Sequence record: OR958571.1
DNA length: 64,000 bases
Source of the DNA: Escherichia phage 121/2022-2B
Reading direction: 5' to 3' (one strand)
The notes under the pieces were generated by a model. The model did not search any database. It was not told where the DNA came from and saw only the letters and a program-made list of their open reading frames with translations. A program made the position numbers and the translations under genes. This document shows, in pieces, positions 4,795 through 6,411 of this stretch (the stretch's first letter is position 1; each line of letters starts with the position of its first letter).

Positions 4795-5810
4795 TGTGTT
4801 GCCTCTACATATAACTGATTTGCATATTGAATAAGTGCTTCGCGATCAGAATCAGTGATGTCTGGAATTGCATTAATGTATTCTTCCATCAATGTCTGAA
4901 GAGATTGAACTTCAACTTCTTCACTATCATCTGACTCGACAGAGTTATCAATCTTTGACACAACTCGTAATGAATGCACAACTTTTTCTAATTCAGATTC
5001 GAACTTCGTTAGATTTTTGTCTACTTCAGTTACTATAACACGTACTGATAGATTTGTAAAATCTTTATAGTCAATTTTTCCTTTAAATGGATAATGAATT
5101 CTACGATGCCAGGTAGTATTGTTTGGAATAAATTCCATTCGTTCTGTTTCTGTATCAAACATCCAGAACCCACGAGGGTCATTCTCGTCACCTGCAGTTA
5201 GTGTCCATGGTGTCCCAATATATCTGACATTAGCAGCCTCAGAGATAGTATGGAAGTGACCAGACCACACTTCTTTATAAGTCTTAAGGAAATCAGGTTC
5301 AAGACCATGAGATTTCATTCCTTTATAAAAATAAAATCCGTTCAGTTCCCAGTGACCAACACAAAAAGAAGCAGATGAAGTTTTGATGTGCTCAAGAATT
5401 TCACCAGTATTTTCTTCACACATCCAAGGAATTAAATCAATTAAACATCCGTCAAAATCTACCGTAGTAGGCTTATCATATACTTTAACATTGGGATATT
5501 TAGCCAAAAGCTCAGTAGAGGCATTTGGATGCATTACATTTTTGTAGTGGAGATCGTGATTTCCTACAATAGTATGTAATGTGATTCCAGCATCATCAAG
5601 CATTTGAACTATTTCACGAGCGAACTCCATAGTTTTATGTGTGATTGCTTTTCGCACATCAAAAATATCACCATATTGAATCCATATAGTAATTCCATTT
5701 TTCTTAGAATATTCTATCGCTTGCTTAATTCCATCAATTTGAATACCGCGAATCCACTCATCATCAGCTTTAACGCCTAAATGCCAATCACCCAAGTTTA
5801 GTATTTTCAT
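4791..5810 (-). CDS. 47: recombination endonuclease subunit gp47 (Mre11-like phosphoesterase)
   Basis: 339 aa; calcineurin-like phosphoesterase motifs LGDWHLG, GDIFD, GNHD, GHWE/GHFH. Confidence 0.93.
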   Translation of the reverse strand: MKILNLGDWHLGVKADDEWIRGIQIDGIKQAIEYSKKNGITIWIQYGDIFDVRKAITHKTMEFAREIVQMLDDAGITLHTIVGNHDLHYKNVMHPNASTELLAKYPNVKVYDKPTTVDFDGCLIDLIPWMCEENTGEILEHIKTSSASFCVGHWELNGFYFYKGMKSHGLEPDFLKTYKEVWSGHFHTISEAANVRYIGTPWTLTAGDENDPRGFWMFDTETERMEFIPNNTTWHRRIHYPFKGKIDYKDFTNLSVRVIVTEVDKNLTKFESELEKVVHSLRVVSKIDNSVESDDSEEVEVQSLQTLMEEYINAIPDITDSDREALIQYANQLYVEATQ

Positions 5811-6411
5811 GGTGTCTTTTCCATCCTAATTTAGCTGCTTTTGAAACTAGTTCTTTAATTTTTCCTTTTGTCCATTCAGGACCAGGAGGTTCATGACATA
5901 ACATTTGCTTAACTCCGTTATTATACCATTTTTTACCTTTATTATGTGATGAAGCTTTAAATTTATTTGACCTTCCTTTTACATAACCTTCTGGAATATA
6001 AGGCAAAAAGGCAGATTTTCCTGTTAATGGATCATGTGAATGTATATTTCCTTTACAATTATGAGAACCATATAATGGATGATTTTGTCCTTTATTATCT
6101 CTTCCAAATGAACCTTTTGGAGCAGCATATGACATATTAAAGAATAATGGATTTTTAACTGCATCATGCAATCGTTGATAATATAACTCGCATTTAATAG
6201 CTTCTTCACGCGTATCAAATTCAGCTAAAATGCATGAATCAAATAAGTGAGGATTATCTGAAAGCTCTTTATTATAAATTTTCTTATACTTTTTAGATAA
6301 AACTGAACCATGATATCCAGCTAAATGCCTATCTAAAGACGTAGATCCAATATAAAAAGGAGGAAGTTTATCTCCACTATATATTGTTAAATAAGTTATA
6401 TATTTTTTCAT
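5788..6411 (-). CDS. GIY-YIG family endonuclease-like protein (candidate freestanding homing endonuclease)
   Basis: N-terminus TIY-x9-YIG-x5-R-x4-YH followed by a conserved Glu (AEFDTREE) fits the GIY-YIG core; basic C-terminal half; stop overlaps the gene 47 start. Coordinates are from the ORF track; my hand translation across the G-run near 6358-6363 was frame-ambiguous. Confidence 0.55.
   Translation of the reverse strand: MKKYITYLTIYSGDKLPPFYIGSTSLDRHLAGYHGSVLSKKYKKIYNKELSDNPHLFDSCILAEFDTREEAIKCELYYQRLHDAVKNPLFFNMSYAAPKGSFGRDNKGQNHPLYGSHNCKGNIHSHDPLTGKSAFLPYIPEGYVKGRSNKFKASSHNKGKKWYNNGVKQMLCHEPPGPEWTKGKIKELVSKAAKLGWKRHHENTKLG

Follow-up and report, generated by a model that had tools for sequence, protein, structure and literature searches.

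A putative Seg-type homing endonuclease gene with a GIY-YIG domain at the gene 47 boundary of T4-like phages

The stretch of DNA analysed here (64,000 nucleotides (nt) of Escherichia phage 121/2022-2B, sequence record OR958571.1; referred to as the window) carries, immediately upstream of gene 47, an open reading frame (ORF) that probably encodes a homing endonuclease of the free-standing T4 Seg type, with a putative cleavage activity. The properties of the ORF match those of the free-standing T4 endonucleases described in PMC2988022. As in Seg-type genes, it lies between conserved genes and outside any intron or intein, is patchily distributed among relatives and has precise boundaries. The parts of the element referred to below are as follows.

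5788..6411, minus strand: intact ORF of 207 amino acids (aa), Seg-like GIY-YIG endonuclease (ORF listing, PHROG 10820, Pfam GIY-YIG, hhalign with SegE)
6112..6411, minus strand: N-terminal catalytic domain, residues 1-100 (Y11, Y20-I-G, R28, Y33, E75, N92)
5791..6111, minus strand: basic C-terminal half, residues 101-207, presumed to bind DNA and select the target, with a terminal helix
5811..6411, minus strand: segment of 601 base pairs (bp) present in the window and absent from T4 (T4 alignment and anchored junctions)
5788..5810, minus strand: 23-nt overlap of the 3' end of the ORF with the 5' end of gene 47 (ORF stop at 5788, gene 47 start at 5810)
5793..5810, minus strand: first 18 nt of gene 47, with silent substitutions linked to the ORF; candidate altered target site

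The ORF listing gave an uninterrupted frame with an ATG start, in agreement with the position (5788-6411) and the length of 207 aa proposed in an earlier reading of this DNA (the original prediction). That reading had questioned whether the frame was intact because of a run of G residues at 6358-6363, but no such run is present (the plus strand reads AAAGGAGGAA). The frame is continuous, and eight related copies are all exactly 601 nt long with zero indels; the frame of the ORF is therefore not in doubt. The predicted overlap of the stop codon with the start of gene 47 was also found, the TGA lying 23 nt inside gene 47, within the codons for G7 and D8 of gp47, and in the homologue alignment the related proteins end in H/N-E-N-x, encoded by the ATGAAAAT of gene 47. 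At the other end, the ATG of the ORF and the TGA of gene 47.1 overlap as ATGA (6408-6411). The upstream neighbour is thus not alpha-gt, as had been supposed, since the 46-aa gene 47.1 (6408..6548) lies between.

The N-terminal part of the protein carries T9-I10-Y11 and, eight residues on, Y20-I21-G22, followed after a further five residues by R28, after four more by Y33-H34, and later by E75 and N92. The series TIY-x9-YIG-x5-R-x4-YH in the original prediction was therefore right as to its motifs and wrong as to the x9 spacing, and the conserved downstream Glu it mentioned corresponds to E75, which is invariant across 43 aligned homologues. Y33, G35, S39, A71 and N92 are likewise invariant in this alignment; Y7, T9, Y11, Y20, I21, G22 and R68 are conserved in at least 90% of the sequences, and Y20-I-G-S is nearly invariant. 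The catalytic residues Y11, Y20-I-G, R28, E75 and N92 are all present in the ORF and collinear with those of I-TevI and the T4 Seg proteins.

Among Pfam families the sole match was GIY-YIG (PF01541), with 73/78 profile positions covered. When the 43 homologues were scanned singly, GIY-YIG was detected in 13 (E<=0.01, best 2.4e-5) and NUMOD3 in 21; NCBIfam gave no meaningful match to the ORF. The homologue search itself returned 170 matches that share the first ~110 residues and diverge after, many of them with NUMOD3 motifs. An alignment-based AlphaFold (AF2) model of the protein had a mean predicted local distance difference test score (pLDDT) of 84, rising to 92-98 over residues 1-90, and the predicted strands (4-11, 19-25 and 57-65) and helices (40-52 and 68-81) correspond to the GIY-YIG fold. 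In a Foldseek comparison of this model with the PDB, the top three matches were the I-TevI catalytic domain, with a probability of 0.91-1.00 (0.99-1.00 for the top two) and an E value of only 0.02-0.13, and every match below them was at E >1. The best matches among solved structures (I-TevI, PD-T4-3, UvrC and Eco29kI) are all GIY-YIG domains. Among the predicted viral structures of BFVD there were 74 matches at E<=1e-3, mainly phage GIY-YIG, Seg-like and NUMOD endonucleases. The GIY-YIG endonuclease-like identity first proposed for the ORF is therefore upheld by the Pfam match, by structural matches that are GIY-YIG only, and by the alignment with the SegE profile (probability 96.6%).

The ORF belongs to PHROG family 10820 (1e-94), which is labelled 'HNH endonuclease'; database records of the identical protein name it 'putative homing endonuclease', 'HNH endonuclease' or 'hypothetical protein'. 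Records that use the second name include NC_054916 KMC08_gp061 and OQ067376 a51_176. That the protein is an HNH enzyme, as many RefSeq and Pharokka-style annotations state, finds its backing in the PHROG label and the many GenBank records, and is almost certainly incorrect. No HNH Pfam family matched at E<=1, the motifs and fold are those of GIY-YIG proteins, no HNH structure appeared among the fold matches, and the HNH proteins MobB and MobD of T4 scored no better than noise against the family profile. The HNH label was consequently rejected for the ORF; with no HNH signal anywhere, the common database name is wrong.

The basic tail noted in the original prediction was confirmed: in residues 101-207 the 7 acidic residues are outnumbered by 17 K, 3 R and 8 H, and the isoelectric point is about 10. 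Residues 100-207 matched no Pfam family, NUMOD3 included. A modular tail of the I-TevI kind (NUMOD3, zinc finger, helix-turn-helix) is accordingly not what the ORF carries; instead there is a SegE-like W-x-N-N-G…P-x-G-W module, reading K-K-W-Y-N-N-G…P-G-P-E-W-T-K-G in the ORF and T-F-W-V-N-N-G…I-P-D-G-F-I-K-G-R in SegE. In the alignment, this W-x-N-N-G…P-x-G-W unit is tandemly repeated in some homologues of the ORF. From its composition and its likeness to SegE, the C-terminal half would be the part that binds DNA and selects the target.

Whether T4 carries an ORF at this position had been left undecided, and the annotation of T4 (NC_000866) shows that it does not: 47.1 abuts gene 47 through the same ATGA, with no ORF between them. 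The extra segment of the window is flanked on both sides by ATGAAAA, at the ORF start and at the gene 47 start. When the junctions were placed by anchors in 9 carriers and 15 ORF-less genomes, the insert was 601 nt in 9/9 carriers and 0 in 15/15 of the others. Comparison with ORF-less relatives, a check suggested with the original prediction, thus revealed a precise 601-bp optional insertion at the conserved 47.1/47 boundary. Its distribution was counted in the GenBank phage collection, in which the flanking genes were found in roughly 500 Tequatrovirus records. The ORF was present at >95% identity in about 68 of these; carriers include BASEL phage Bas45/PaulHMueller and a51. A query spanning the junction of the ORF with gene 47 was covered by 68 records, and a synthetic 'empty' junction query showed 47.1 fused directly to 47 in about 438; that is, the ORF is present in about 68/506 Tequatrovirus records (about 13%) and absent from about 87%. 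An even sample taken down the ranking held 9 carriers among 53 full-length matches, and a scan of IMG/VR with gp47 gave only six Tequatrovirus loci, all ORF-less. Phages RB14, which has no ORF, and REP1, which has it, are identical in their gene 47 haplotype from nt 87 to 318; the presence of the ORF is therefore uncoupled from its flanks. Two outcomes had been named in advance as fatal to the original prediction, namely no match to a GIY-YIG profile, and universal presence of the ORF with neither polymorphism nor cleavage activity; what was found is a GIY-YIG signal and a polymorphic ORF.

The flanks of the insertion were compared between the 9 carriers and the 15 non-carriers at 1,809 positions, of which 789 lie upstream and 1,020 downstream. 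The only fixed differences were at nt 9, 15 and 18 of gene 47, all of them silent, and none was found in the 789 nt upstream of the junction; nt 10 of gene 47 also differed, nearly always. These positions (nt 9, 10, 15 and 18) correspond to 5802, 5801, 5796 and 5793 in the window and fall in codons 3-6, such that gene 47 starts with ATGAAAATACTAAACTTG in carriers and with ATGAAAATTTTAAATTTA in non-carriers. At distances above about 300 nt, carriers and non-carriers differed from each other as much as they did among themselves. All 68 carriers matched the carrier-type junction at 98% or more. In Dhakavirus-type phages, gene 47 of the carriers, of which only two or three were available, differed from that of their ORF-less relatives in a similar way, by silent changes at nt 9, 12 and 15. 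Judged from their position, the silent substitutions may have altered a target site. The suggestion that the ORF lies next to the site of its own insertion, inside a pair of conserved genes, is supported by its polymorphism, by the precise boundaries and by these ORF-linked substitutions.

The same comparison yielded exceptions. In nine ORF-less records (H204-H212), 47.1 is fused directly to the carrier-type start of gene 47 (ATACTAAACTTG); they include SHFML-26 (NC_031011 100379-100478), BCPEco_001 and Ec_YwIITB1. T4 and RB14 have the TTTTAAATTTA allele and SHFML-26 the TACTAAACTTG allele, and all three lack the ORF. With these nine records carrying the same allele, the notion that the substitutions are strictly diagnostic of the ORF was rejected; the link between the ORF and the gene 47 allele is very strong but not absolute. 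The nine records either mark places where the ORF has been precisely lost or show the ancestral background of its insertion.

Two further observations on gene 47 were made. In an ORF-less Dhakavirus-type phage (IMG/VR contig 2974735671; L023 3001-3021), the gene starts with ATGAAAATACTAAAC, which has the ATACTAAAC of the Tequatrovirus carrier type and hints that the carrier allele could be an import from another lineage. Separately, the ORF-less Tequatroviruses fall into two sharply distinct haplotype blocks, a T4 type and a PE37 type, at gene 47 nt 58-78 and 225-291 (about 5753-5733 and 5586-5520 in the window), which differ at about 10 of 20 nt in the first stretch and at about 20 of 66 nt in the second; nine of the nine ORF carriers examined have T4-type blocks. 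The blocks could reflect mosaicism or resistant and sensitive variants of a target.

Carrier alleles differed from the window by 0-22 nt, and the changes were overwhelmingly synonymous (e.g. 17 synonymous vs 3 non-synonymous; 11-17 synonymous to 1-5 non-synonymous changes over the alleles). The protein is maintained and is under purifying selection. Degenerate copies were also found. The copy in GEP001 (L044) has a nonsense codon (G183*), KNP1 (KX452694 25880-26456) and KNP5 (KX452698 / NC_055713 37305-37881) have an internal deletion of 124 bp, and the alignment of the ORF is split into two pieces in ESh36 and ZCEC15 and into three in ERS-1. Two of the degenerate copies are frameshift-like. 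Intact and decaying copies are thus found alongside empty sites, some of which have the carrier-type allele, and these four types of site are what a cycling selfish endonuclease gene is expected to leave.

Full-length homologues of the ORF directly precede gene 47 in five or more sampled T4-like lineages, Tequatrovirus included. Outside Tequatrovirus they are 50-76% identical to the ORF and adjoin gene 47 in the Dhakavirus-type coliphages QL01, NC-G and KIT01, in Klebsiella phage SmallBear_ER8, in the Serratia Winklervirus LC53 and in the Aeromonas Biquartavirus L9-6, and in L9-6 the homologue overlaps gene 47 by 23 nt, as in Tequatrovirus. The genes upstream vary among lineages (alpha-gt plus 47.1, a-gt.2, or others), and the constant partner is therefore gene 47. 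A second group of relatives occupies another locus: paralogues with NUMOD3 tails directly precede gene 39, which encodes the topoisomerase large subunit, and share 8 nt with its start, in Yersinia phage TG1 (gp009; L053 1498-2181), Bp7 (gp108; L054 1504-2184) and IME281 (gp274; L056 1498-2175). Their N-terminal portion of about 115 residues is 45-67% identical to that of the ORF, whereas their C-terminal half consists of NUMOD3 repeats and their locus is gene 39, not gene 47. By sequence comparison, this looks like a swap of the DNA-binding module that accompanied a move to another target locus. Modular GIY-YIG homing endonucleases are expected to behave in this way, with a single nuclease domain joined to various tails at various loci.

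Several findings weigh against a homing endonuclease, and some of them concern the protein. The canonical Arg, R28 in the ORF, is Lys in most homologues. The profile check proposed with the original prediction did give a match to GIY-YIG, at E 3e-4, but its score of 21.4 bits falls narrowly under the 22.6-bit gathering cut-off, and searches of the PDB by sequence only, with the single protein or with a 43-sequence profile, found nothing relevant. The predicted fold and the profile match to SegE count for more than the sub-threshold score. The Lys and the low score would also suit a catalytically dead relic, kept as a DNA-binding protein (e.g. an autorepressor, as I-TevI can be) or as a translational leader for gene 47, the start of which is embedded in the ORF; T4 itself has defunct endonuclease genes in mobA and I-TevIII. 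Such a relic is nevertheless very improbable, as R28 is present in the window and Y11, Y20, E75 and N92 are intact, the last two being invariant across the 43 homologues; in addition, synonymous changes exceed non-synonymous ones across the whole catalytic domain and the fold is predicted with high confidence.

The remaining objections concern the locus and its history. T4-like phages recombine so intensely that any accessory gene becomes patchy; the carrier-type allele is also found in 9 of about 438 ORF-less records; and the divergence of the ORF between lineages (50-76% aa identity) roughly tracks that of gp47 (61-74%). With the two diverging in step, a long vertical association with losses fits as well as repeated homing does. 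The characterised Seg enzymes usually cut hundreds of bp from their own gene (PMC2988022), so that the silent changes beside the insertion may represent donor sequence brought in by co-conversion and not the target, and the true site could be found further into gene 47 or within alpha-gt. No study of the ORF, and no report of its cleavage or inheritance, was found in the literature. A rival history is that of a long-standing accessory nuclease gene beside gene 47 that no longer homes, inherited vertically in several T4-like lineages and repeatedly lost or reshuffled by ordinary recombination; it would be kept for a contribution to the expression of gene 47 or for some nuclease function directed at the host or at competitors. 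This would be in keeping with the same position beside gene 47 in five sampled lineages, the recurrence of the 23-nt overlap in L9-6, the parallel fall in identity, the purifying selection on the protein and the nine ORF-less genomes that already have the linked allele. We nevertheless regard this history as unlikely: carriage of the ORF does not follow the flanking haplotype (RB14 compared with REP1), the boundaries are precise and the silent substitutions are clustered exactly at the junction, degenerate and intact copies coexist, as expected of a cycling selfish element, and SegE, its nearest relative among characterised enzymes, is active in homing (PMC2988022).

If the ORF is a homing endonuclease gene, as we favour, its action could be pictured as follows. 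It would be transcribed with the 47.1-47-46 unit, probably from a middle-type promoter upstream of 47.1, and its translation would be coupled to the end of 47.1 via the ATGA overlap. During co-infection with an ORF-less relative, the C-terminal module would bind the ORF-less DNA at the 5' end of gene 47 or close to it, and the GIY-YIG domain would make a double-strand break, which phage recombination would repair on the ORF-carrying template, copying in the ORF together with adjacent markers. The carrier genome would be protected by the insertion, which splits the halves of the junction, and the silent changes in codons 3-6 of gene 47 may add to this protection. Clean loss of the ORF would be constrained, because the sequence just before an essential gene, and the first 23 nt of that gene, are part of it. 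The analysis shows the domain identity, the precise and optional insertion, the linked silent changes, the purifying selection and the fidelity to the locus; that the protein cleaves, where it cuts and that the ORF is inherited in a super-Mendelian way are inferred.

The neighbourhood to which this scheme refers contains the following features.

4791..5810, minus strand: gene 47, SbcD/Mre11-like nuclease subunit (conserved gene adjoining family members in every sampled lineage)
6408..6548, minus strand: gene 47.1, predicted 46-aa membrane protein (PHROG 6693 match and T4 annotation)
6547..6570, minus strand: element resembling a T4 middle promoter, upstream of the cassette (read from the sequence and the T4 alignment)
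6588..7790, minus strand: alpha-glucosyltransferase gene (alpha-gt), the conserved upstream neighbour beyond 47.1

Transcription on the minus strand runs in the order alpha-gt, 47.1, ORF, gene 47, 46.2, 46.1 and 46. Upstream of 47.1 there is a hairpin followed by GCTTTA (6570-6565), a 12-nt spacer and TATAAT (6552-6547), identical in T4; this arrangement resembles a T4 middle promoter and, by the known consensus, would be of the MotA type. Seg genes typically have middle or late promoters (PMC2988022). No late-promoter TATAAATA was found within or near the ORF, and a generic sigma-70 scan was uninformative (17 sites vs 16 expected). RNA folding around the two start codons was no better than that of shuffled sequences (z +0.5 and +0.6), with no sign at either of a hairpin sequestering the ribosome-binding site, as has been described for some T4 endonuclease genes.

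The ORF now occupies the ATGA at which gene 47 is coupled in T4, and gene 47 starts 23 nt before the ORF ends. Endonuclease genes that embed signals of essential downstream genes are harder to lose (PMC2988022). It is conceivable, if rather doubtful, that the endonuclease family has captured the expression of the essential gene 47 and so is more than a passenger; the idea arises because the ORF holds the coupling point, supplies all of the upstream context of gene 47 and ends 23 nt inside it, as does the L9-6 homologue. If this were true, synthesis of gp47 would depend on translation of the endonuclease gene, which would amount to a retention ('addiction') device, and an enzyme that makes breaks would be tied to gp46/47, the Mre11/Rad50-like nuclease by which such breaks are resected in homing.

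The surrounding DNA was also surveyed for other mobile endonucleases. A tblastn search with all T4 Seg, Mob and I-Tev proteins against the 64 kb, which corresponds to about 30.6-95 kb of T4 as estimated by the coordinate offset from gene 46, gave a sole match, that of SegE to the ORF, and no homologue of mobB, mobC, I-TevII, mobD, segB or segC. The HNH gene mobB, which in T4 lies between alpha-gt and a-gt.2, is thus missing from the window, where the interval 7791-7856 separates alpha-gt from the a-gt.2 homologue (7857..8030). In another genome (G28; L045 1-536; record 35197-36051), a further annotated homing endonuclease gene was seen immediately upstream of 46.1, at a position where in the window and in T4 the 3' part of gene 46 abuts 46.1.

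The Seg-type homing endonuclease proposed here is missing from T4 and from the 15 T4 endonuclease genes tabulated in a review (PMC2988022). It suggests one more site of localised marker exclusion around genes 46/47 and alpha-gt when natural T4-like phages are crossed, and it calls for an annotation correction, the 'HNH endonuclease' of many records being a GIY-YIG protein. The pairing of one catalytic domain with two tails at two target genes (47 and 39) is a case of natural module swapping that could aid the engineering of GIY-YIG nucleases. T4-like phages are known to be full of such mobile elements, so that finding the ORF is not surprising, and it is an ordinary, if uncharacterised, example of a well-known kind.

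The I-TevI catalytic domain is the structural archetype of GIY-YIG homing endonucleases, and I-TevI cuts within 25 bp of its own insertion site. The ORF shares with this domain (PDB 1LN0/1MK0) equivalent Tyr, Tyr, Arg, Glu and Asn positions, the last two being E75 and N92 in the ORF and E75 and N90 in I-TevI. Unlike I-TevI, it is not intron-encoded and, by Pfam, has no I-TevI zinc finger, NUMOD3 or helix-turn-helix tail. An hhalign comparison with I-TevI gave no significant homology (13.9%), with only a short stretch of C-terminal repeat aligned; kinship with I-TevI therefore rests on fold and not on sequence.

The T4 endonucleases, taken from the T4 record, were scored against a hidden Markov model (HMM) of the ORF family. 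SegE scored highest (34.8 bits), followed by SegG (26.2), SegC (19.8), SegD (18.9), SegB (16.7) and SegA (16.0), while SegF, I-TevI, MobB, MobD and EndoII were near noise. SegA-D, SegF and SegG resemble the ORF in having a Seg-type GIY-YIG N-terminal domain and in being inserted between conserved genes, but their similarity is weaker than that of SegE and their C-terminal modules and loci are different. With SegE, the alignment of profiles (hhalign, E 6.6e-10) extended over 164 columns, from the Y-I-G motif to the C-terminal motif, and covered both halves of the protein; on sequence similarity SegE is the T4 protein closest to the ORF. SegE is a free-standing GIY-YIG homing endonuclease encoded between inh and uvsW that cleaves the uvsW gene of relatives (Kadyrov et al., 1997, as summarised in PMC2988022). 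The two differ in that identity is only about 25-28%, in their loci (inh/uvsW for SegE and 47.1/47 for the ORF), and in that the ORF, unlike SegE, has its stop codon 23 nt inside the downstream gene and is absent from T4. They are alike in size (205 and 207 aa) and in collinear homology across both halves, with common motifs in the N-terminal part (Y-I-G, G-Y-x-G-S, E-E-A…E and Y/F-N) and in the C-terminal part (W-x-N-N-G…P-x-G-[FW]-x-K-G-R), and each is encoded by a free-standing gene that lies directly upstream of a conserved gene of DNA metabolism and is polymorphic among T-even phages.

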